Source: Lytechinus pictus
Lineage: Eukaryota
Length of the DNA: 64,000 nt
Assembly (NCBI RefSeq): GCF_037042905.1
Contig: NC_087251.1
Span: 31,374,001 to 31,438,000, forward strand
Direction: 5' to 3'
Part shown: positions 1,282 through 60,900 of the stretch, one piece after another
Layout: each line of letters opens with the position of its first letter
Position numbering within the stretch: position 1 is the stretch's first letter
Notes under the pieces: model-generated
What the model was told of the DNA's origin: nothing
The model's input: only the letters and a program-made list of their open reading frames with translations
Databases searched by the model: none
Translations under genes and position numbers: made by a program

Positions 1282-1560
1282 TATAGGCCTACCCCCGCTC
1301 TCCCAAAAGTGATTTGTTTTAACATGCACCGATTTCCCGGCAAACACATATAGGCCTATTTCTCTCATTATTGTTGTTAAAATAAAAAAAAATTCTTCTC
1401 AGCTTAAAGAGTTAATATTCATAAATATACTCAACACTCTCCATGCAGTGCCTCCGTATTGATAGGGCCAATGACAGGTTTTGAGCTATTGAGCTCCTGT
1501 TATACTACAAAGTCCATTTGCGCATTTTCACGGTAACTGACGTTACAAGGCACAATTTTA

Positions 1561-3893
1561 CAGGGGCGGAAATCTCTCCCAAAAGGTAGGGGGGACACAG
1601 GGGCGGATCCAGCCTTCGCCAATAGGGGGGGGGGCGGAAATTTGTTTCAGCCAAATTTTCCCCGATCAGCAGCTCGAAGATGAGTTTTGTTTGTTTCTTT
1701 GAAGGGGTAGTCCTCATTAGTCACTTCTTAGCTTTATTCTTATACATTAATATATAATATCATCATCCTTATTCCATGTATTTATATGATTCGAGCGCGA
1801 AGCGCGAGCTAATTTTTTTGGAATTTTTTTGTATTTTTTCATAAAATTTGAACTGATTCTGGGCAATGTTTATCCTGAAAAAGATGTGTATGCAACTTAA
1901 TAATTACTACAAACGCAAAGCGCGAACAGAAATGAACTGATGGAAAAGATACCTGTTAAAGTAGCATTTAACAATCAAATAATGCGAGCGCGAAGGGCGA
2001 GCTGAATTTTTTTTGACATTTTCACCTAAAGAATGGAAATTCTAAGCACTTTTTGTAACTTAAGCAGAAAAGGCATATAAGTAAACAATTATTACGAGCG
2101 CGAAGCGCGAGCGGAAAATTTCGAGATTTAGTCCTTTAATATTTACTGAACGAGACACTCTATGTTTTGTAAATCCTGAAAAGGATGAGTATTAATAATG
2201 CGAGCGCAAAGCGCGAGCAGAAAATTTTTATATACGTTTTGAACTGGTACCTGTTGAAAAGGTACCTGTTAAGGACTGCTTACACTTAGCCATGAAGGCG
2301 TTACATATTTCAACAATAAAAAAAATGCGAGCGTGAAGCGCGAGCTGAAAATTTTTGAACTTTCTAAAGATAGAATGGAAAAACAGGATAGCTATATATT
2401 TTAACGATTGATGCGAGCGCTAAGCGCGAGCAGAAAAAAATATCGAGATTTAGACCTAAAAATGGGCCAGTCTGTTCATGTTTTGTAAATCATCAAAAGG
2501 ATGAGTAATATGGGGTCTTCTTACATTAATAATGCGAGCACAAAGCGCGAGCAGAAAAATGTTGATATTGTGATCTGAAACTGGATAATGATTTAAATTA
2601 GAGGACAAGTTGAGTATCTGAATAAACATGCGCGAGCGTGTTTCATATTTAGACCTAGAATCTAGGCATTCTAAATATAACTTTAATCATGAAAATCATG
2701 AAAAATTTGATATTCCGATCTGAAAAAAGAGCAAATTTTAGCTTTATATTTCAAGCACTTTGTAGAAAAATTATAAGGTGGATATGGATCGCATTTAAAA
2801 AAGAGCTGATATTATTATTACTTTGAGTTTTGACATAGGACAGGGACATCCTTACATGTCATATGAAAATCTTCCTATTCCTCTTGCTAAGCGCGAGATG
2901 AAACAAAAGGGACAATTTAATTATTAAATTAATATCATATTTATTAATGTCTAATGAGGGCGCGAAATCTGATGATATCATGGCATAAAAACTAGACATT
3001 TCACTTTTGTGATTATGAATAGGATGCATCAGTTAATATATTTTTAACCATTAATGCGAGCGCAAATCGCGAGCTAAAATTTTTGGTAAACTGTCATGAA
3101 AAGGGGATTTTAAGTAGTTTGTTGTATAATCAATATTGAAACATTTATATAACTCGCCATTCAAAATGCAAGCGCGCAGCGCGCTAGCTGATACGTCTTG
3201 ACAATCAGACCTGAAAAGGGATATTTTGAAAACTTTATGGAATACACGAAAATAATAGGTACCTGATAAATGAAAATTTGCGAGCGCGCAGCGCAAGCAA
3301 CATGTTAACATTCAGACCATAAAACTGACATTTTTACAGAGCACTTTTTAAAAACCAATTTGTAAATTACACAAAATAATGAAAGATCGATTTCCGAGGT
3401 GAAATATGTTTTATATATTGACTTCCAAACTTGATATTCGAACTCCATATTGAACAAGATATGTAAATCTTTATATTTTATTTTATTTCAGTGGCACGAA
3501 AGATTCTCTTTATTTTCCAAGTCTTCCCCTCATCTTATTTTATGCAGTCGCCGTCCTTCTCTTCTTTTTTCCTCTCTTTTCCCTCCCTTTTTACTTCTTT
3601 CTTTCCCTTTTTTCTTTTTTTTGCTCCGCCAAGAGGGGGGGGGGGGCGGGCCCCTCGGCCCCCTGGATCCGCCTATGGGGACAAGGGGCGGGAAAATTTG
3701 ACAAGCAAATAAAAAGGTTATCATCGTCAAAGTAAGGTCATCTCGTCCCAAAATATATGTTTTATTTCGATTTAGAATGATGTATTTCTTACCATCATAA
3801 AAGACCAAAAATAGTAGGGGGGACATTTGATATTGTGTCCCCCCTACTATTTTGAGTAGGGGGGACACGTCCCCCCTGGGATTTCCGCCCATG
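1561..3893. mobile_element. hAT-type non-autonomous element (outer)
   Basis: TIRs CAGGGGCGGAAATC / GATTTCCGCCCATG; perfect 8-bp TSD CAATTTTA (1553-1560, 3894-3901); an 8-bp TSD and CA..TG ends are typical of hAT. Confidence 0.85.
1598..3677. mobile_element. hAT-type non-autonomous element (inner) carrying a ~90-130-bp tandem array
   Basis: TIRs CAGGGGCGGATCCAG / CTGGATCCGCCTATG; flanks GGGGGACA / GGGACA (TSD with a G-run length difference); about a dozen GCGAGCGCGAAGCGCGAGC-type motifs between 1790 and 3300. Confidence 0.8.
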
Positions 3894-50881: not shown

Positions 50882-53041
50882 CTTCAAAACAATGGAAAAA
50901 TCAAAAATAATTATCAATACAGGGAATGTTTGAAAGAAAGTAAAAATATAGACACTCATGAAGTGAATTTGCAAAATGGATAAAAACAAAAATCACTAGA
51001 TCTATACAAGTTTTTAGTATAAATGAAACAAAAGAATTATTTTAACAAAGTGGCACTGGCATTTTTTATCTAGATTCTATGAAAAATGGACTTACATAAG
51101 AGATTGAAAGTGCAATATTCAAATTACTCTTTTTTGTGTGTTTAATTGGACATGTAGATTGCCATTTCCTTTGTACTTTTTTCATGGAAAAGAACTTGAA
51201 ATCACAAATTGATGGGTTGTTGATCTTCTCGTAGGTGAAAACTTTTTTGTTTTTTAAACTCTTTTAAAAACTCTTTTAACAAAAGTACAATGGCTACCCC
51301 TGCTATTATTGACCCTATCAACCCCAGATCAAGTGGTCCATTTATTAACACCTGAGTTTAACTTCTTAATTAAATAAGGATAGAGTAGGCAAAATGTGTT
51401 TGATTTGAAAATTAAAAAAAATGATTGAATTGACAAGAAATCTGCAATGGCAGACTATCTATATCCTCAGTCATATTCCTCACTTTTATACCCTTATTAA
51501 TATTCCATAGAATCTAAATATTATTTTCATTTTTATACATAGACCTTGTTGAATTGTATGTTTTGATGTCTTAAGATTTAAATCATTTACATTGTGATAT
51601 TTTGATGTTTGAAATGCAAAGTAGAGCTAATAGTTATCATTTTACTTTGAAAACTTCATCACAATAATTGCGGTTTCATCAGATCAGGGTTTTCCTTTTT
51701 AAAAAATAAATGACATTAGATCTACATGATTAAAACAAAATATGGCTACGTGTCTTGTATTCTTTTTGACAACTGTGGTATCTCGCCACGATGAAGCCTT
51801 TACAGTGATAATTTGTGATACTAAACTGCAATAAAAAATAACTAATTTTACTCAAAAAAGTTCAGAACTAAAAAAATAAATAAAGAAAAGCACCAACTTT
51901 AGTCTAACGTTAGATCTAACGTTAGACAATTCTACCCGCTTACAAATCTTGTAAATTAATCAATGTAATCTTTGTGTGCACAGGATGATTTGTGTGTTTA
52001 AACTGCAGGTGTCGTCAAGTTTCTACAATTGCTCCACCCTGTATGAGCACTGTTGTCGCCTATGAGGTCAATACTGTTATGGTTTTACCTCAGTCATTCG
52101 TAGTAGGAGCAGGAGTGCTAGTGGGTCTGCGCAGTGATTGCTAAAATGCCCCATTATGAGAGTATAGTGAGACCACTACATATCGACCACCTCTTTTGAA
52201 ACCGACCACCTTGCGCGCATTAAAATTATTGCGTATTACAAACGATACGCGCGGGAGAGTAGGCGCAGTGTCCATAGGAACGGTAAGAATCAATTTTACG
52301 AGAGAAAAAGAAGGAGAAAAAATAAAAATTTAGTAGAATTTATCAAATTGTTTTTACTAGACCAGAACCCGCCCCGTTGCCGATAGGAAACGGCTTTAGA
52401 ACAAATATCCATTGTCAATGGTCGAATCATATGTGCCGGAGCTCGCAGTGGAAGTAGTGAGACGATCATTTAGCATGTTGACATCACAGAAATGATTTGG
52501 AAGAGTTAAAATATTTCCCCACCGCGACAAGAATCGGCCGTAAACTCTGTATCGCGGGTGGTCGGTTTCAAAAGAAGGTTGCAAATCAAATGAGCAAATG
52601 TAAAAGTAAAACCGTTGTATTCGTTGTTCGCCGATATATACGCGAATTGAACGGAGTCGCCGATCGAAACATGGGAATATGATTAGCTCAATTTTCTGCA
52701 CAAATGAGACGAAAATTAGGTCAGAGGGCGCTCTGACGAGGGTGGACGTATTTTTAGATCGCTGCGTCGGCCCACTTTTTAATCTTAGAATATCACTTTT
52801 TTACTTGCACATCTTGTTTGATTTTTACGATTATCTTGCCTATTAAATACCTATTATTGGAAATCGCACAGTTTTGACGACATATTTTTATCGAGAAGGA
52901 GAGTTTTAACCGTTTTATATCACCCTGCATCGGTCATTTTTAACTGCGTCATCACCATATACTATACAACGCACAACGCATACTCTACACAGCGGGAAAT
53001 TCAACTTTGCATTCAACTCCACATCGCATCGGATTTCCAAC

Positions 53042-54667
53042 ATGGCGAAAACAACATTATTGAGATCGAGTCTACATGCCTTTTTAGGACTGTTTCTACT
53101 TGCTACACGTATATCTAGTGGAGATTTGAGAGTGAATGAGTCAGCCAGCTTTCACGGTAGGAACTTTCCATTTTATACTGATTATCGTGATTTTAACTTT
53201 GGACTGTTTGGTGAGTTTGATCCCGTATCAAATTACATTACCCGAATTGACATGCCCATTACACGATTATATATCCAATATTACATATCGTATAACTGTG
53301 TAACCCATAATGAATTTGGGAAAGGACTGCAAACCACAGTGGTCAGCTCAAAACTACCAAAAGGCTTATATGCCATTATCCAGATTGTTAACTTACTCGC
53401 AGGTGACATTGAACCAAACCCTGGCCCCACCCTAAACTTTAAGCCTGGAGCCGGACTGAAGCTCAAGAGAAAGAGAGGGAGGAAGCCCAAATATCCATGT
53501 ACTCTTTGTAACTATGCTGTGAAGATTGACGACAAAGGCATGCTTTGTTCAAACTGTAATAAATGGTCACACAATAGTTGTACAGGTGTAACCGATGAAT
53601 TGTATGAATACCATAAGAAAAACTCCAATGCCATTTGGTATTGCCCGGAATGTGATCATGTAAACATTGTCACATCAAATGCTGGTGGCGATGAATCATA
53701 TTGTAGCACACTTCAATTTGATGTTCTTGACCCAGACCTGAATGATGATCTAAATACTTCAGAATTTATCCAAGTAACTACATCAAGTCCTAAACGAACT
53801 ATTAAACAAAGAAAAGCTGAGAAGAAACAAGAGAGTAGATCTATTAGATCTAAAGTTAGACAAACCTTGAACGATACAAGTTCATGTAAACTTAAGAAAA
53901 ACAACATCAAAATAGCCATAGCTAACTTCCAGAGTATTAGAAATAAAGTAACTGAATTTCAGGCCTTCCACACAGTAACCAAACCAGACATCATATTGGG
54001 ATCAGAATCCTGGCTCGATGAAAATACAACATCAGCTGAAATTTTTCCAACCAACTTGCAAGTCATCCGGAAAGACCGTAAGAACATAAAGGGAGGAGGA
54101 GTCTTCATTGCCCTCGACCAAACAATCCCTATAATAGAGAGACCTGATCTCGCTGAAGAAGACAGTGAGTCAGCATGGTGCCAACTTCTTGTAAATGATG
54201 GGAGCAGTATCTATATCGGCTCCTACTATAGGCCCCCAACGAATAGTAATGACTTAGAAAATCTTAGCAAAAGCCTTGAAAAAATCCAACAGGAAACTAA
54301 CACACCCTACATCATACTTGGAGGGGATTTTAATATACCGAATATGTCATGGACTCCAACCGAGGCCACAACCCCACTTCAACGAGACATACTAGGAATT
54401 ATTGACGAACACAGCTTAGAACAACTCGTCAATTTCACAACACGTCGAGATGCTAGTGGAACCGAAAATATCCTAGACTTGTTTTTCACTACGCACCCAT
54501 CTCTTGTGAAGAACATCCACCCATACCCAGGATTTTCTGACCACAGCGTAGTAATGGTGGAAATTAACATTAAAGCACCCTGCCTACTAGGCCGCCAAGA
54601 GAGATCCACCAATGGAAAAAGATGGATGAAAACAAAATCAAAACAGACGCAGATAATTTTTGCGTGA
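53042..54667 (+). CDS. LINE polyprotein N-terminal part: signal-peptide-like leader, 2A-like motif, basic stretch, PHD finger, APE endonuclease (true frame probably shifts near 54575-54600)
   Basis: LHAFLGLFLLA hydrophobic core; LLAGDIEPNPGP; KLKRKRGRKPK; CTLC..CSNCNKWSHNSC..WYCPEC (C4HC3); NFQSIRNK, SESWL, GGGVFI, YYRPP, GGDFN, LDLFF, SDH. Confidence 0.92.
   Translation: MAKTTLLRSSLHAFLGLFLLATRISSGDLRVNESASFHGRNFPFYTDYRDFNFGLFGEFDPVSNYITRIDMPITRLYIQYYISYNCVTHNEFGKGLQTTVVSSKLPKGLYAIIQIVNLLAGDIEPNPGPTLNFKPGAGLKLKRKRGRKPKYPCTLCNYAVKIDDKGMLCSNCNKWSHNSCTGVTDELYEYHKKNSNAIWYCPECDHVNIVTSNAGGDESYCSTLQFDVLDPDLNDDLNTSEFIQVTTSSPKRTIKQRKAEKKQESRSIRSKVRQTLNDTSSCKLKKNNIKIAIANFQSIRNKVTEFQAFHTVTKPDIILGSESWLDENTTSAEIFPTNLQVIRKDRKNIKGGGVFIALDQTIPIIERPDLAEEDSESAWCQLLVNDGSSIYIGSYYRPPTNSNDLENLSKSLEKIQQETNTPYIILGGDFNIPNMSWTPTEATTPLQRDILGIIDEHSLEQLVNFTTRRDASGTENILDLFFTTHPSLVKNIHPYPGFSDHSVVMVEINIKAPCLLGRQERSTNGKRWMKTKSKQTQIIFA
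53372..53428 (+). other. 2A-like (StopGo) ribosome-skipping sequence
   Basis: ...AIIQIVNLLAG-DIEPNPG/P matches the D(V/I)ExNPG/P consensus; the skip would fall between G128 (53423-53425) and P129 (53426-53428). Confidence 0.8.
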
Positions 54668-56703
54668 ACTTTTTGGACTCAAATCCTGGTAGTAAATCAG
54701 TCGAAGAGAATTGGTGCAACTTTAGAGACAAAATGCACGACCTTGTCAACCAACACGTACCGTCAAAAACAGTGTCAGGAAAACCAAGAGTACCCTGGTT
54801 AACCCCCAAACTCCAGAAACTTTGCCGCAAGAAGGAGAGGTACTATTCAAAGGCAAAGCAACTCGGAGGACAAGATAGATGGGACAAATACAAACAAATA
54901 AAAAGAGTAGTCAATAAAGAACTTAGAAAAGCCCAACGGACATTCATAGCAACTCTTTCAGAAGCCGGTAATAAACAGTTCTGGAAATATATCAAAACCA
55001 GGCGAAAGGACAACGTAGGGATCCAGAGCCTTAAGAAGGGAAACGACATCATTACTGATGACAAAGGGAAAGCAGACGCACTGGCCGAACAGTTCCAGAG
55101 CGTCTTCTCCAGGGACGAAACCCAAATCCCCAACCTTCCAACAAGAAACATCCCTGATATGCCAGATATCAACATCACAGTTAGTGGCATCCTCAAGCTA
55201 TTGAACAAGTTAGATGTCTCAAAGGCCGCAGGACCAGATAGCATACCAAACCGTATTCTTAAACTTACAGCTGAAGAAATAGCCCCCGTCCTTCAATTCA
55301 TATTTAAACAGTCATACGACCAAGGGATCCTTCCCGAGGATTGGCGTAAAGCGAACATCGCTGCTATCTACAAGAAGGGTCCTAAAAATGATCCAGCTAA
55401 TTATCGCCCTATATCCTTGACCAGTGTATGCTGCAAACTTATGGAACATATAGTAGACAGCCATCTAATGACACACCTTACTTCAAACTCAATCCTTTCT
55501 GACTACCAGCATGCCTTCAGACGGGGTAGATCATGTGACACACAATTAGTTGCCACAATCCATGATCTTGCTACTCATCACAACAACAAGGAGACATGTG
55601 ACATCGCAATACTCGACTTTAGTAAAGCATTCGATGTCGTCCCCCACAAGAAATTGTTGCAGAAACTTCAATTGTATGGCATCCGTAGCAAGACCCTTGA
55701 GTGGATAAGATCATTCCTGACCCAGAGATATCAAAGAACAGTAGTGAATGGTAAAACATCAAAGTGGTTACCAGTCCTAAGCGGTATTCCGCAGGGAACA
55801 GTCCTCGGGCCCCATCTCTTCATCTCATATATAAACGACCTCTCAGAAGCAGTTCACAGCACGGCAAGACTGTTCGCAGATGACTGCATACTCTACCGAG
55901 CAATATCCAACCCCTCTGATGAAGAATCACTACAAAAAGACTTGGATAATTTGGTCACATGGGGAAACACATGGGGGATGAAATTCAACGCTTCCAAATG
56001 CACTGTCATGAGGATCTCCAGAAAGCGAGTACCAGGACATAGCAATTACTTACTCCTTGGTCAACAACTTCAGGAAGTAAATAGCCATCAATACCTAGGA
56101 ATACATATAGAAAACAGCCTAAAATGGGATAAGCAGTCACAACAGGCAACCGCCAAAGGTACGAGGGCGTTAAACTTCATCAGAAGGAACTTCTATCACT
56201 GCTCTAAAACAGTGAAGGAACGTTTATACCATTCACTTATTAGACCCCACCTAGAATACGCTTCGATAGCATGGCACCCAGGCACAGTCAAGAACACCAA
56301 ATTGCTGGAAATGGTTCAGAGACGAGCCGCCCGGTTCGTCACAGGAAACTACACACGGGGATCCAGTGTTACTAACATAATGACAACACTTGGCTGGATG
56401 TCTCTCGAAGAAAGGAGGCGAAATCACCGAATCATCAACTTATATAAGATCATCCATGGAGAAACTCAACTTGACTTAAATAAATATGCCACAAGAAAAA
56501 TAACAAGACTAAGAAGATCCCATGATGAACTGTATGACGTCACTTCAAAGTTCATCACAACTACTCAACTGGCTAATTCCTTCTTCCCTGAAGCAATCTC
56601 CCACTGGAATAACCTCACAGCTGATATGGTATCCTCCAAAAGCACTGACATACTTAAAGCAAAACTAAACATGCAAAACCTGCAACAAAACAAAACAGAG
56701 TAA
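54622..56703 (+). CDS. LINE polyprotein C-terminal part: reverse transcriptase
   Basis: KAAGPDSI, NYRPISLTS, QHAFRRGRSC, LDFSKAFD, GIPQGTVLGP, LFADD, YLGI, VQRRAARF, SFFP..I..WNNL; the frame is open upstream to 54573. Confidence 0.96.
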   Translation: MDENKIKTDADNFCVNFLDSNPGSKSVEENWCNFRDKMHDLVNQHVPSKTVSGKPRVPWLTPKLQKLCRKKERYYSKAKQLGGQDRWDKYKQIKRVVNKELRKAQRTFIATLSEAGNKQFWKYIKTRRKDNVGIQSLKKGNDIITDDKGKADALAEQFQSVFSRDETQIPNLPTRNIPDMPDINITVSGILKLLNKLDVSKAAGPDSIPNRILKLTAEEIAPVLQFIFKQSYDQGILPEDWRKANIAAIYKKGPKNDPANYRPISLTSVCCKLMEHIVDSHLMTHLTSNSILSDYQHAFRRGRSCDTQLVATIHDLATHHNNKETCDIAILDFSKAFDVVPHKKLLQKLQLYGIRSKTLEWIRSFLTQRYQRTVVNGKTSKWLPVLSGIPQGTVLGPHLFISYINDLSEAVHSTARLFADDCILYRAISNPSDEESLQKDLDNLVTWGNTWGMKFNASKCTVMRISRKRVPGHSNYLLLGQQLQEVNSHQYLGIHIENSLKWDKQSQQATAKGTRALNFIRRNFYHCSKTVKERLYHSLIRPHLEYASIAWHPGTVKNTKLLEMVQRRAARFVTGNYTRGSSVTNIMTTLGWMSLEERRRNHRIINLYKIIHGETQLDLNKYATRKITRLRRSHDELYDVTSKFITTTQLANSFFPEAISHWNNLTADMVSSKSTDILKAKLNMQNLQQNKTE

Positions 56704-56994
56704 TAATACTCCCACTCTCGTCAGCCCTGAGTTACCCTTCCTGGTGGAGGACTTCAGGGATTGAAACTACAAGGTACAAGGTACAAGGTATCTGATAGAT
56801 ATTTTCGCAGATACGATGCTTAGAAAATTAGGTGGTCGATAAGGGGTAGTTCCAACCATACACTACGCAAAACCCCGTGCATGGGACTTGGCAGTATTAC
56901 TTTTACATGGTGTACGGGATATTGTTGGTCGAATATCTATTTTGGGTGGTGTCAATAGACCAATATGATTAAATTTTGATTAAATGATACATAC

Positions 56995-57940: not shown

Positions 57941-60900
57941 GGGGGAATTTTTTATTAGACTACTCTTCTTTACTTGTACATGCAGCAATATAAGCACTGG
58001 TCCCCCCCCCATTGTCATAGTCTTCGTAGAGAGGAGAAGAATGAAGAAAAGAAAATGGGGGAGGGGAGGAGAGAATGACAGAGAGCAGGAGAAGAGAAAG
58101 GGGTTGGGCAAGGATTTAATTACTAGTAATAGCAATTAAATCATTAATATATCATAAAACACATCAAAATGGTCATCCTCAAGATCACATATCTTCCTCA
58201 GAATAAACAACACACAACCAAATATATTAACAATATGGTCATCAGCATGGTTACATAATATGTATACATACAAAATCATAACCTTATCACCTACAATATT
58301 ACTAATATCATTGCTTTTCCTTATGGAATTCATTTGTAGTGTCAAACTACAAATTGGCGAAGGCTGGATCCGCCCCTGTTATAGGTAGTTTAAGTATTGT
58401 ATAAACGTCGAAAGCAAGTGATTTTTCAAATGACTTGCTTACTACGGAGGGATTTAATGTAGTGTCAAACTACCATTTTTGAGGATACTCTAGACCCGGG
58501 CTCTAAATGCGGATTAATTAAATTGAATAAATTAAATAAAAATTGTCATTGGAATCCAACCGTAATGAGTTATAATTTCTGCTTAAATATAATAATGGAA
58601 ATTATTGCATTAGGACCAGTATTAATGAAATTGTAGAGTCCTTCATTCGCAACTGTTATATCTGATCAATTCCACAGAATTGTTAATTATTATGTTTTTT
58701 ATTTGAAAGTGGAACTATATTGTTAGAGGAATGCACGAATACCAGTGTTAGTTATTTTTAGTGATACGTCGGGCAACACCCACTTTATATGTCCATTGAC
58801 ACACTTGTAATAGCAGCCGACAAGGCCGTTTGCCAGTGGGCGCTATACGTGTTGGCGTTGGCATAGCCACGTTTAAGACGGCTTAGATATGGTACGTAGC
58901 AATTAATTATAACTCGCATTATAGCACTATTGTATCGAAAATTAGGTAATCAATTAAAATATACAGTAAATCAAATTTTGTGCAATTTTCCTCCTGATTA
59001 TGTACAATGTTGGAACAGATTAGATTTTGGGCGTGGCGTTAAATTTTGCCGCGGTATTGATCATGTGACTTTAATTCTTGATGAAAAGTTAATCATAGAT
59101 GAATGTTTACCTTGTGCGAGAAAAGCATGATTTATACTTATCAAGTTGAGGTTTTCAGGAATTTAATCTGATCAACTGATATTTTGATGCTTCTAGACAT
59201 TTGAAGGGGTTACTATTGTTTCGATATCCAACCGAACACATTTGAAGGTTGATAATCTTTAATCGTAGCTTAAATAATTTTGGGGCTATGTTTATCGAGT
59301 TTGTTCTTTTTAAAATCGTATATTAGAGGATTTATGTATTCATGTATTTTTGTCCAAATAAGGCATGCTGACGTGGCTTTGTAAACGACGCCATGTTTAG
59401 GGCGTGGCTTATATAATGGAGATGTCTAAGCTTATATACACCACCAAGGGTGAGTTAATATTAATATAGCTACATGTTAGTTAATTATATCACATATATA
59501 CCTTTGTTCCCTTTTTGATGTGAATTTATATATTGGTGTTGTCTATCTACAGGATTTACTTTAACAGTTTTACGTGCCGTGTAGGTGTTATTCCAGACGG
59601 TTATGGATTTATTATATACAGTTTCTATTCTTTGATTCTGCAATATATACGATATATTGATGTTATTATTAAAACATTATCCCTGAATATATACGACAAT
59701 ATGAAACACATTTATATATCATCTTTTTACTACTATGTGTATTCTAAATTTGATGCTTTAGTAGTTATTAGTAGTTATTTACAATTCAATCAAGTGCATA
59801 GAAAATTAACCTAACTTCACAATTATAATCAACAAAATATCAGGCGATAAATAATGTGACTATTGCATTGTATCATTTATATTTGTGCTCTGTAATACTG
59901 ATTTTTACTTATGATACTACTGTATGTTTATTCAATGCAGGGATCTGTTGTATACGAATAAAGAAATACATTCAACGCTAGTCACCGTCTCCCGACTAAG
60001 ATTTATTGGCTCAAAAGGGGTGTCGGATCCCGACATCCAAACATTTTAATCACAAACACTATGTTTGCATAAAGTCAGAAGCATCTGCATCAACATCATT
60101 TTCTTATACAACAAAGCAAAACAATCTCCAACCATCCATTCAAATTTTTTTTCATGAATGCTCACAATAGAAATAGAAAGAAAATGAAGTCAAACACTAA
60201 ACTGGATGAGCGACACATTCTACTTTTAATAGCAAGATATCATTCACCAAAGCATGCTAGCAAACTACATTCGCATTTTAGAATAATTCCAGTATCCATG
60301 ATAATATTCAATTTTCAACAAGATTTTTCTTATAGAGAAATGTAATGAATCATACATTCAGGTAACATGGTAAAGTAGATTGTTGAATTGTTTCAAGTTA
60401 AAGTGGTACCTGACAGTATTTGTCTTGTGAGCATAGGTCTATTTGATTCTGAACTTGACATAAAATTCATATCAATGATAATAAATCATTAAAAGTTTGA
60501 TATCAAATTTGGGACATCAAAATTAAAGCAAGCAGCCCTTTCAGAACTTGCTATTAAATTTCAATTCATTATTGATTTGTTGCTATAAAAGATACACATT
60601 CATATGTCTACATAAATATCACCAAACACAATGCTCAAACTGATGCTTTGATTAAATGATTGAATTACAAGTAGGTACCTTGCTTCATTCATAATCAGAA
60701 GCAATGTAGTATCATCTTAAAGTATAGATATCATGTTTTAAACTTCCCATTTTACTTGAAGCGAACAATAGAACAACACGCTTCTACACACTACAAACAA
60801 AAATGTGTAAGATTACAACTACAATACACAGTCCTGTTCGACACAGATAAGACCAAAATCACATGCACAATCTCAATATATCCATTGAAATCATAAATCT

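Follow-up and report, generated by a model that had tools for sequence, protein, structure and literature searches.

LINEs with a StopGo/2A motif at the start of their coding sequence have been described before, and the closest to the element studied here are those of Odon 2013 (PMC3708506), in which a PHD finger lies between the 2A and the APE (STR-24/25/34/35_SP, Crack-17_BF, and CR1-1/17/26_BF). In these elements the 2A is found about 40–80 aa from the N-terminus, and its presence correlates with the loss of ORF1; the authors suggested dose control or an unknown discrete product. The trypanosome LINEs L1Tc and Ingi (Heras 2006) also have an N-terminal 2A in a single APE-RT ORF, directly upstream of APE according to Odon 2013, and enzyme dose control was proposed for it; the citing literature, as far as its available text goes, reports no signal-like leader for them. 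The pairing of a signal sequence with StopGo is known from sea-urchin NLRs, host immune-receptor genes in which one 26-aa peptide is both signal and 2A: the product from downstream stays in the cytoplasm and the unskipped product is ER-targeted, entering the exocytic pathway (Roulston 2016, PMC4981915, whose available text reports SignalP for NLRs only). Finally, binding to phospholipids and liposomes is on record for the esterase ORF1p of L2-type elements (ZfL2-1; Schneider 2013, PMC3905857). The reason for the missing ORF1 in 2A-bearing LINEs and the role of the pre-2A peptide have been open questions since 2013.

The window, a stretch of 64,000 nt from Lytechinus pictus (NC_087251.1, positions 31,374,001 to 31,438,000), holds a copy of an element of this kind (Table 1). 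It shares with the elements of Odon 2013 a single ORF without ORF1, an N-terminal D(V/I)ExNPGP, the order 2A-PHD-APE-RT, and short tandem units with no poly(A) at the 3' end; judged by its APE and RT polyprotein, 2A core and lack of ORF1, it would be classed with them. Unlike in that description, its pre-2A part is 128 aa long and represents a selected protein family with a signal-peptide-like start. This signal-like leader is what is new, since both the 2A, which the earlier note had already called known, and the 2A-PHD-APE layout are in print (Odon 2013). The words signal, hydrophobic, membrane, endoplasmic and secret- are all absent from the main text of that paper, and a full-text literature search found no report of a signal-like pre-2A leader. 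Every feature listed in the earlier note (leader, sequon, 2A, basic stretch, PHD, APE, and RT) was found in its place; what the note had overlooked is a broken frame, which leaves the window copy without one intact ORF.

Table 1. Features of the retrotransposon copy, in window coordinates.
Feature	Position	Strand	Evidence or remarks
Whole non-LTR retrotransposon copy, single-ORF type, ~4.07 kb	52723..56790	+	blastn against three other genomic copies
5'UTR without any ATG, 319 nt	52723..53041	+	start context: A at -3, G at +4
Signal-peptide-like segment, codons 1-27	53042..53122	+	n-region MAKTTLLR; hydrophobic run SSLHAFLGLFLLAT; c-region RISSG, small residues at -3/-1
Leader body, codons 28-108	53123..53365	+	aromatic-rich, no known family
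StopGo/2A element, codons 109-129	53366..53428	+	LYAIIQIVNLLAGDIEPNPG/P; expected skip at G128/P129
Basic stretch KLKRKRGRKPK, residues 140-150, NLS-like	53459..53491	+	start of downstream product
PHD finger, residues 153-204	53498..53653	+	Pfam PF00628, E 9.6e-6, 26.0 bits, cut-off 24
APE-type endonuclease, residues 314-504	53981..54553	+	Pfam PF14529 (Exo_endo_phos_2, 390-504), E 4.9e-19
Reading-frame break, window copy	54577..54580	+	short C run, one base different in length from two sister copies
Reverse transcriptase domain, residues 254-496 of the second frame	55381..56109	+	Pfam PF00078 (RVT_1), E 4.3e-39
3'UTR	56704..56790	+	three terminal copies of ACAAGGT (7 nt); poly(A) absent

The LINE of the window is young. 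Identity by blastn was 99.80% over 4063 nt and 99.58% over 4071 nt with two sister copies, and 94.84% over 3915 nt with a third, degraded copy; homology with these three copies places the start of the element at 52722/52723 and its end at 56784–56791. Both sister copies, located on another contig, carry an uninterrupted 1220-aa ORF. The window copy has a single frame break, between APE and RT, giving 53042–54667 (541 aa) and 54622–56703 (693 aa). The longer, in-frame form of the C run is also present in contigs of runs X1 and X15 (runs X1–X4 and X15–X18, of unknown kind, served solely for sequence-variant comparison), and the break could reflect either a genuine mutation or an assembly error at the homopolymer. 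Named protein matches to the element were generic only (‘jockey-like’, ‘uncharacterized’), with echinoderm relatives among them. The absence of a separate ORF1, proposed in the earlier note, is borne out by the distance between the start of the element (52723) and that of the ORF (53042), occupied by an ATG-free 5'UTR. As a counterpart, the same genome contains a leaderless PHD-APE-RT family whose ORF1 is separate (313 aa), in line with the published link of 2A presence to ORF1 loss (Odon 2013).

The first AUG of the transcript is that of the leader, preceded by an in-frame stop and by no other ATG, which indicates indirectly that translation starts at the leader. The 318 nt scored (52724–53041) contain 0 ATG, compared to a mean of 4.76 in 2000 shuffles (P(0)=0.0095). 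Transcription was followed in raw reads of stranded, rRNA-depleted RNA-seq, about 6% of each run: reads in sense orientation covered the 5'UTR at a depth of 0.5–2.1 and the 3' part at a depth of 10–16, and their variants agree with those of the sister copies. In these 6% of the runs the leader-coding bins were nearly devoid of RNA reads, an observation that we count against the ER-docking reading set out below.

The ORF begins with MAKTTLLRSSLHAFLGLFLLATRISSG, and the start of its leader shows traits of a signal peptide: a positive n-region (net +2, a charge that varies among relatives) and an h-region within about 7–15 residues. The uncharged run covers residues 9–22 (14 aa), with Kyte-Doolittle means of 1.99 for the 12-mer and 2.33 for the 10-mer. 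S25 and G27, before D28, fit the permissive −3/−1 rule by eye, and P0002 has A-S-G; the alignment contained no cleavage site conserved across the leader family. Further on, an N-E-S sequon occupies residues 32–34, and the family (alignment A2, 20 sequences) shares the motifs (Y/H)GR-x-(F/V)PF, Y-x-IS-x-x-C and G-(K/R)-GL, with a single conserved Cys in the leader body.

This leader is a real, conserved coding segment under purifying selection, with a constraint as strong as that of the RT. It is open in 4/4 genomic copies, and the 95% copy has kept it through in-frame indels (−9 and +6 nt) although its downstream frame is broken. Comparing a sister copy to the 95% copy (Nei-Gojobori), dN/dS was 0.10 for the whole leader (13 synonymous against 5 non-synonymous; binomial p=1.2e-5), 0.07 for codons 1–27 (8 synonymous and 2 non-synonymous), and 0.16 for codons 28–128, with 0.12 for the RT and 0.20 for the remaining ORF. 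In a paralogous copy (L025) the leader is frameshifted and stopped, yet a 1161-aa frame is open downstream, which again counts against the ER-docking reading.

A profile search with the leader in a library of 1.84 billion proteins gave 18 homologues at E<=0.001, and for 15 the match reached E<=1e-10. All those of enough length run on into NPGP, RGRKPK-PC, PHD and APE, and none was found outside LINE ORFs. The clusters of 10 homologues carried neither names nor taxa. A word-indexed search with residues 1–135 against proteins of 671–2135 aa had returned nothing at E<=1 because of its length and word limits. The hydrophobic start is a family trait: a 12-mer with KD >=1.9 lies 10–20 aa before the YGR motif in 16 of the 17 leaders whose N-terminus is complete (that of the window, L012, and 15 library sequences). 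Within this family the uncharged runs measure 12–24 aa and a 19-mer reaches KD >=1.6 in 7/17, so that a cleaved signal and a signal anchor look alike by these measures. A further point against the ER-docking reading is the N-terminus of the paralogous family L012, which is weaker (KD12 1.55) and lacks a basic n-region.

Structure and domain searches matched the leader to no known family. Pfam gave no family for the leader at E<=1 in six leaders and homologues, a PDB profile search gave 0 matches at E<=1, and an RRM, coiled-coil or SGNH esterase was found in neither of these nor in the ESM Atlas. Two candidates were set aside: a LEAP-2 precursor match to residues 1–46 of L012 was not significant (E 0.14), and the best ESM Atlas score, 0.90 to unnamed plant clusters with recognition below the usual level, offered no convincing neighbour. 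AlphaFold2, run on the 20-sequence alignment, predicted an isolated N-terminal helix at 3–25 (block pLDDT 71–91) and another helix at 107–119; mean pLDDT over the leader was 59.5 and pTM 0.25, with no confident fold beyond the N-terminal helix and residues 36–70 below 50.

Taken alone, the hydropathy of the window leader is weak evidence: of 97 arbitrary ORFs drawn from the window and loci, 22% have a 12-mer at least as hydrophobic. We therefore looked at its recurrence among relatives, 120 of them full-length among the matches listed, out of 188 at E<=1e-20. NPGP occurs within the first 260 aa in 55 of these 120 listed relatives, and in 42 the leader is of at least 60 aa. The most hydrophobic 12-mer starts in residues 1–26 in 38/42 of these long leaders, with the last 25 aa of the 2A excluded; uniform placement predicts 17.2, and 38 was reached in 0 of 20000 simulations. 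A KD of at least 2.0 is reached by 36/42 long leaders vs 4/65 listed relatives without 2A. Pooling 60 long leaders, BLASTP sorted them into 35 families that are mutually unrelated in sequence, with bodies not conserved between them, and the hydrophobic N-terminus is present in 32/35. The signal-like start claimed in the earlier note extends well beyond this one element. With a median of 12 aa (IQR 10–15; 49 leaders), the hydrophobic run resembles signal peptides in length, and only 3/49 reach 19 aa. In 49/49 leaders measured, 44 aa or more (median 93) separate this run from the 2A glycine. Leader bodies show no enrichment in N-glycosylation sequons (41 seen vs 34.7 expected, P=0.13). From these hydropathy heuristics we infer that the leader may target the ER, and the layout shared by unrelated leaders hints at translation at the cell's internal membranes.

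At the other end of the leader, LLAGDIEPNPG/P ends at residues 128/129 (GDIEPNPGP, residues 121–129), with a canonical core and a Leu-rich upstream context. N117, L119, A120, G121, D122, I123, N126, P127, G128 and P129 are near-invariant in alignment A2, and NPGP is retained in 19/19 family members that reach that position. By its sequence, this site should release the leader from the enzyme part. Most members of the leader family have DI(N/S)xNPGP and not DIExNPGP, which counts against the ER-docking reading: in other 2A contexts E->N is weakly active and E->S inactive (Odon 2013), and in these members the enzyme would be pulled into the ER by an ER signal if StopGo failed. The product downstream of the 2A has the basic start that the earlier note had described, a conserved stretch followed by the PHD finger, and RGRKPK(Y/W)PC is common to most homologues. 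On the APE region PF03372 gave E 2.4e-4, with a score below its cut-off.

We moderately favour the following reading. The ORF opens with a leader cassette made of a signal-like segment, a family-conserved spacer of ~80 aa in which no fold was detected, and a canonical StopGo/2A, and this cassette probably sites translation at the ER and limits ORF2 protein. Scanning ribosomes would initiate at the leader AUG, given its good context and the lack of an upstream ATG. Judging from geometry, the hydrophobic segment would be out of the exit tunnel well before codon 128, so that SRP could dock the ribosome, together with the LINE mRNA, on the ER. StopGo would then free the leader into the ER membrane or lumen, where cleavage after SSG is plausible in the sub-family of the window element. 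By analogy with published 2A and signal-sequence constructs, the same ribosome would continue from Pro129 with a signal-free PHD-APE-RT on the cytosolic side, and the basic stretch would take it to the nucleus or to nucleic acid. Unskipped chains would enter the ER and be lost, capping enzyme dose. The position of ORF1 is taken by the cassette in these ORF1-less elements, its most likely role being to place translation of LINE mRNA at the ER and nuclear envelope and to keep ORF2 protein low. A broader version is possible though doubtful: across a whole marine-invertebrate LINE clade, ORF1 would have been replaced by a ‘signal peptide - spacer - StopGo’ cassette that docks the mRNA on the ER before enzyme synthesis, so that PHD-APE-RT is made at the ER and nuclear envelope, beside its own RNA.

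Other explanations have to account for the same data. The leader might be a cytosolic substitute for ORF1 that uses its hydrophobic helix to self-associate or to bind lipids or, peripherally, membranes, instead of for SRP-dependent entry into the ER, with StopGo yielding it in excess over the enzyme. It does occupy the position of ORF1 in leaderless relatives, its body lacks secretory hallmarks (fold, Cys, sequons), members with non-canonical 2A cores would be viable, and functions N-terminal of the 2A as a discrete product have been proposed (Odon 2013). We nevertheless hold this to be unlikely: the body is not basic (net charge about −2 over residues 28–128) and in this differs from RNA-binding ORF1 proteins, no RRM, coiled-coil or esterase matched it, and the hydrophobic stretch shared by 32/35 unrelated families sits at the N-terminus, with a position and length (median 12 aa) that signal peptides typically show. 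Quite improbable, in turn, is a purely translational device, in which the leader provides 2A context or length and tunes the enzyme down while the peptide is functionless and its hydrophobic start incidental. Low fold confidence and leader bodies unrelated between the 35 families would suit such a device, and in the argument of Luke 2013 the 2A takes over from ORF1 the down-regulation of ORF2. A 2A requires a context of about 30 aa, and leaders of 72–181 aa go beyond it; dN/dS is low in both parts of the leader (0.07 and 0.16), family motifs are conserved far from the 2A, and the hydrophobic segment is N-terminal in 38/42 leaders vs 17.2 expected.

If the mature ~100-aa peptide were a secreted or surface effector acting outside the cell, in host interaction or intercellular spread, it would need the same signal-like N-terminus, and conservation of the body within the leader family also speaks for this. 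Such a role is less likely than siting translation at the ER and nuclear envelope, and indeed very improbable: there is no disulfide pattern, fold or sequon enrichment, bodies differ between families that share the cassette, and homologues all lie within LINE ORFs. The cell-to-cell and host-interaction options of the earlier note are left without support, and a soluble, secreted peptide that acts independently stays hypothetical, with no folded domain in AlphaFold2, sequons at P=0.13 and one conserved Cys. As for chance or artefact, in which the hydrophobic start would stem from T-rich codons of AT-rich DNA or from a misassigned start codon, the genome is indeed AT-rich (GC 0.29–0.43) and 22% of arbitrary ORFs are as hydrophobic. 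Purifying selection, the lack of an upstream ATG, 18 homologues and position-specific recurrence in 32/35 families leave this a practically negligible probability, and it looks refuted by the selection and clade-wide placement data.

The LINE leader differs from two known parallels. In the NLRs signal and 2A are one peptide and consequently only unskipped chains can be targeted (Roulston 2016), whereas in the window leader the hydrophobic run (9–22) and the 2A (109–128) are ~85 aa apart and the ribosome could dock before the skip. Some relatives with short leaders (e.g. 27–38 aa) may be of the NLR type. The esterase ORF1p of CR1/L2-like elements is, like the leader, a LINE product from upstream of APE-RT with a proposed membrane or lipid association; it is encoded by a separate ORF, is several hundred aa long and has a coiled coil and an SGNH esterase, in contrast to a StopGo-released leader of 128 aa, with which it has no sequence or domain similarity.

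The signal-like N-terminus of 32/35 unrelated leaders gives the pre-2A peptide a concrete and cheaply testable property. It would tie LINE translation to the ER, a compartment that, to our knowledge, has not been considered for LINE ribonucleoprotein assembly except through the lipid-binding esterase ORF1p. If the clade-wide version were true, the cassette would give cis-preference and dose control by a route independent of ORF1, in which a spacer of at least 44 aa lets the signal emerge before release. Should the ER signal function not apply, what is left is an N-terminal helix, hydrophobic and conserved, in an element of a known kind. The leaders are natural ‘signal + spacer + 2A’ cassettes in which the fate of translocon-docked ribosomes after StopGo can be studied, and they may indicate the source of the 2A-like signal sequences of sea-urchin NLRs. 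At the insertion itself, an 11-nt repeat, a candidate target-site duplication, flanks the element, with 32 nt between the 3' tail and the second repeat copy, and a third copy of the repeat is present in the window.

Homology between genomic copies set the 5' boundary of the LINE at 52722/52723, where it reads AGAGGGCGC..., and its 3' boundary at about 56790, within three copies of a 7-nt unit. The element is thus about 4.07 kb long and its short 5'UTR leaves no space for a separate ORF1, as the earlier note had maintained. The other elements of that description were recovered too: direct reading of the first ORF returned the leader start, the sequon, the 2A motif and the basic stretch, and Pfam matched PHD, APE and RT. 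The exception was a single intact ORF: at a short C run near 54577-54580 the window copy differs in length by one base, which splits its frame, while two sister copies each carry a single uninterrupted ORF of 1220 aa. Either a mutation or an error in assembling the homopolymer could account for this break; contigs of sequencing runs X1 and X15, used for variant comparison only, carry the in-frame form. With this one correction the observation is confirmed. Its interpretation is partly supported: the leader part holds, and ER targeting and skipping by the leader cassette are putative, judging from sequence.

Features of the element in the window (nucleotides in window coordinates, plus strand; residues in ORF numbering)
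Feature	Position	Length or match	Source
5'UTR	upstream of leader ORF	319 nt	
ORF, first part	53042-54667	541 aa	ORF list
Leader start MAKTTLLRSSLHAFLGLFLLATRISSG	residue 1 on, ORF from 53042		direct reading
N-E-S sequon	residues 32-34		direct reading
LLAGDIEPNPG/P	ends at residue 128/129		direct reading
Basic stretch KLKRKRGRKPK	residues 140-150		direct reading
PHD	residues 153-204	E 9.6e-6, above cut-off	Pfam
Exo_endo_phos_2 (APE)	residues 390-504	E 4.9e-19	Pfam
ORF, second part, different frame	54622-56703	693 aa	ORF list
RVT_1 (RT)	second frame	E 4.3e-39	Pfam

The L. pictus assembly (811.7 Mb, 368 contigs) holds four copies of the 619-nt segment singled out by the earlier note. Both sister copies lie on another contig; one matches the window copy at 99.80% identity over 4063 nt, the other at 99.58% over 4071 nt. 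The fourth shows 94.84% identity and 51 gap positions over the whole element; it is degraded, its frame being broken by several indels and its 3' end having diverged. The leader (codons 1-128) is nevertheless open in 4/4 copies; indels within the leader of the degraded copy are all in frame (-9 and +6 nt), its frame being lost further downstream. Comparing a sister with the degraded copy (Nei-Gojobori), we obtained a dN/dS of 0.10 for the leader (13 synonymous and 5 non-synonymous differences; p=1.2e-5), with 0.07 for codons 1-27 and 0.16 for codons 28-128, against 0.12 for RT and 0.20 for the rest of the ORF. The leader is therefore a selected coding part, and it starts at the first AUG: no ATG was found in the 318-nt 5'UTR (shuffles: mean 4.76, P(0)=0.0095), and A at -3 and G at +4 flank the leader start codon. 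The next in-frame methionine past the 2A, M166, lies inside the PHD finger, making a translation start downstream of the 2A unlikely. Between the degraded copy and the sisters, divergence in 150-nt bins of the shared coding part peaks at 53024-53173, which spans codons 1-27 and flanking sequence (9.3%, compared to 1.3-6.0% in the remaining bins as far as 56623; the 3' end at 56624-56773 cannot be aligned and reaches 50%). Its differences are almost all synonymous (dS 0.52 in codons 1-27, 0.08-0.14 elsewhere), which may reflect a mosaic whose 5' end came from another sub-family, or a locally raised mutation rate together with strong constraint on the protein.

Taken on its own, the hydropathy of the window leader is weak evidence for the signal peptide proposed earlier. 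An n-region MAKTTLLR (charge +2) precedes an uncharged run at residues 9-22 (14 aa; Kyte-Doolittle mean, KD, of 2.33 for the best 10-mer and 1.99 for the 12-mer), and RISSG before D28 agrees by eye with the -3/-1 rule, but such hydropathy is reached by 22% of 97 arbitrary ORFs. Comparative evidence is much stronger. Within the leader family, 16/17 complete N-termini have a 12-mer KD of at least 1.9 at the same alignment position, 10-20 aa ahead of YGR, the position of the segment being kept and its residues not conserved; L012, from a divergent paralogous family in the same genome, has a KD of only 1.55, and the segment is absent in three N-terminally cut models. Searching with the full-length protein, we obtained 188 relatives at E<=1e-20, the 120 listed being the basis of what follows; the named ones are echinoderm (Strongylocentrotus purpuratus, Holothuria leucospilota, Amphiura filiformis). 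Among these listed matches, 55/120 carry NPGP in their first 260 aa. Thirteen of the 55 leaders, shorter than 60 aa, were set aside (several are evident truncated gene models, some perhaps of the NLR type). Of the 42 left, 38 have a most hydrophobic 12-mer, scored without the last 25 aa of the 2A, that starts in residues 1-26. Uniform placement expects 17.2, and 38 was reached in 0 of 20000 simulations. A KD of at least 2.0 is found in 36/42 of these listed long leaders and in 4/65 listed relatives without a 2A, most of which start within PHD or APE. That the hydrophobic start arose by chance is hardly credible.

We then pooled 60 long leaders, from the listed matches and the window family, and grouped their bodies by BLASTP (E<=1e-3) into 35 sequence families, 32 of which have a hydrophobic N-terminus. 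A 12-mer KD of at least 1.9 is present in 49/60, with truncated models among the 11 failing. Median length of the hydrophobic run is 12 aa (IQR 10-15), and only 3/49 runs extend to 19 aa or more: this is the length of a signal-peptide h-region rather than of a transmembrane helix. Recurrence of N-terminal hydrophobicity in 32 of 35 unrelated families means that the property is kept, not the sequence, and this is how targeting signals evolve. What stands of the earlier claim, on these comparisons, is a signal-like leader that is real, selected and clade-wide. Under a laxer counting rule the window family has runs of 12-24 aa, and a 19-mer KD of 1.6 is reached in 7/17, so both a cleaved signal and a signal anchor would fit it.

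The leader matches no known family. The profile and structure searches proposed earlier gave no recognition in Pfam, PDB sequences or the ESM Atlas. In L012 the leader measures 125 aa (127 aa in the search, P-E included); it ends VNLLANDINLNPG/P, is 27% identical to the window leader and is followed by RGRKPKYPC, PHD and APE, a build shared with the window element. A profile of these two leaders, run against 1.84 billion representative proteins, returned 18 matches at E<=0.001 (15 at E<=1e-10), all LINEs or LINE fragments, and no homologue beyond LINE ORFs. NPGP is reached in 17/18, the 18th sequence ending earlier; most continue with RGRKPK(Y/W)PC and PHD, the longest extend into APE, and one cluster has full-length members of 1232 and 1221 aa. 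The 20-sequence alignment shows (Y/H)GR-x-(V/F)PF(F/Y)D, Y-x-IS-x-x-CA and G-(K/R)-GL, then PFLGYPRGRLPL-x-II-x-NLLAGDI-x-x-NPGP ahead of and through the 2A. AlphaFold2 with the family alignment (mean pLDDT 59.5, pTM 0.25) placed helices at residues 3-25 (block pLDDT 71-91), 76-88 and 107-119, and nothing confident at 36-70. The surroundings of the hydrophobic run are conserved in this alignment, many members having R-x-N-(S/A/T)-(S/T) directly before it and Arg/His, then Ile, Val or Phe, directly after.

The 2A and the 2A-PHD-APE layout are already published, and the signal-like leader ahead of them appears to be the new part. Sections of Odon 2013 (PMC3708506) describe N-terminal-region 2As in single-ORF APE-type LINEs, tied to ORF1 loss, and the order 2A-PHD-APE in sea-urchin STR and amphioxus CR1/Crack elements. 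Their 2As lie 40-80 aa from the N-terminus, whereas ours ends at residue 128/129. Signal, hydrophobic, membrane, endoplasmic or secret- are nowhere mentioned in that text; Luke 2013 lacks hydrophobic, membrane and endoplasmic, and uses 'signal' in other senses only. Roulston 2016 (PMC4981915), in the portion available, applied SignalP to NLRs only, and the accessible parts of two recent eukaryotic 2A surveys mention LINE ORF2p with variable N-terminal sequence and no signal peptide there. We found no description of a signal-peptide leader ahead of a LINE 2A in full-text searches that covered a minority of subscription journals. One precedent for membrane association of a LINE product, from the abstract of Schneider 2013 (PMC3905857), is a lipid-binding esterase ORF1p. 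The same genome also holds L048 (G000:C3:69506675-69509836; 185-1126, 1498-3162), an abundant leaderless PHD-APE-RT family. Its ORF2 starts right at the PHD finger (MIKYPC...), and upstream lies an ORF1 of its own, 313 aa long and with a stretch resembling a coiled coil. By its layout, L048 is the 'ORF1 instead of 2A' counterpart and confirms the link between 2A and ORF1 loss.

The leader thus combines a hydrophobic N-terminus of signal length with a canonical 2A core whose upstream part is Leu-rich and helical. Pooled leaders are 72-181 aa long (median 111 aa). The 2A glycine lies a median of 93 aa, and at least 44 aa, beyond the hydrophobic run, and in every leader the spacer is long enough for the hydrophobic segment to exit the ribosome tunnel before codon 128. 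The downstream part opens with a basic stretch and a PHD finger. We infer that SRP would dock the translating complex on the ER, where StopGo would free the leader into the lumen or the membrane itself. That ribosome would continue with PHD-APE-RT, made without a signal, cytosolic and then nuclear, and unskipped chains would be pulled into the ER and lost. Exactly such a split of fates, by a signal followed by StopGo, is described for sea-urchin NLRs in part of Roulston 2016 (PMC4981915).

Leader bodies vary between families while signal, spacer length and 2A are kept, which argues that the leader more likely serves the siting of translation and dose control than a secreted effector. A secreted functional peptide is less likely, and an effector role is very improbable: sequons in leader bodies are not significantly enriched (41 seen vs 34.7, P=0.13), one Cys is conserved in the family and there is no confident fold. 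That the leader substitutes for ORF1 in the cytosol is possible if doubtful, in an element that has no ORF1 and whose leader starts with a signal-like segment. A mere translational spacer is unlikely for a leader with a dN/dS close to that of RT.

Two points weigh against siting and dose control by the leader. Most members of the leader family replace the E of DIExNPGP by N or S; in other contexts E->N is weakly active and E->S inactive, according to sections of Odon 2013 (PMC3708506), and the available part of a 2026 study shows that uncommon cores can retain full activity in their native context. In L025 (G000:C3:26568834-26572070, minus strand), a copy of a paralogous family, the leader is frameshifted with stops and an open frame of 1161 aa runs on from the 2A, suggesting either very recent damage or an enzyme part able to persist without the leader.

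Several relatives were observed alongside. Another 2A-PHD-APE-RT family of this genome (L027, L028 and L029; G000:C13:19094492, C31:269542 and C3:40007861), with open frames of 1213 and 1216 aa, has an apparently unrelated 103-aa leader (MSYLKSSSCSFLVATFICIGL...LLMLAGDINPNPGP) with a hydrophobic start (12-mer KD 2.40). The LINE relatives P0099 (S. purpuratus LOC105443737), P0063 and P0119 carry the 2A form ...LLLLSGQ(V/I)E(T/S/M)NPGP, in P0099 only 27 aa from the protein start. The '2A-like signal sequence' of sea-urchin NLRs is given with a -VETNPG- core in the portion seen of Roulston 2016 (PMC4981915), and NLR signals might therefore stem from captured LINE 5' ends. Two LINE proteins of this clade, P0095 and P0146, are filed under bacterial metagenome-assembled genomes (Candidatus Thiodiazotropha taylori and a gammaproteobacterium), most likely host animal DNA binned with the symbiont.

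To assess expression we used about 6% of the raw reads from each of two paired RNA-seq runs, X19 and X20, which are rRNA-depleted and carry the label of this species. In the usual stranded library a first mate on the minus strand denotes plus-strand RNA. Reads with this orientation are present over the 5'UTR bins, at depths of 2.07 and 0.92 in X19 and of 1.45 and 0.51 in X20, and are more frequent over the 3' part (depth 10-16), with almost none over leader-coding bins; variants, e.g. at 52864, 56042 and 56239, match the sister copies and not the window copy. Orientation and variants show that the LINE family is transcribed in sense at a low level, a result that bears on RNA alone, not on translation.

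The element is inserted in a repeat of high copy number, as seen from contig word depth: 88-108 to its left (52400-52553) and 368-611 to its right (56712-56865), compared to 2-30 over most of the element, with values up to about 105 where it ends on the 3' side. Reads as well as contigs link 52715 to 56799 with 17 other letters between, the empty form of the host repeat. An 11-nt direct repeat, GAAAATTAGGT, adjoins the 5' end (52711-52721) and recurs 32 nt beyond the 3' tail (56823-56833), a possible target-site duplication, and a third time at 58937-58947.
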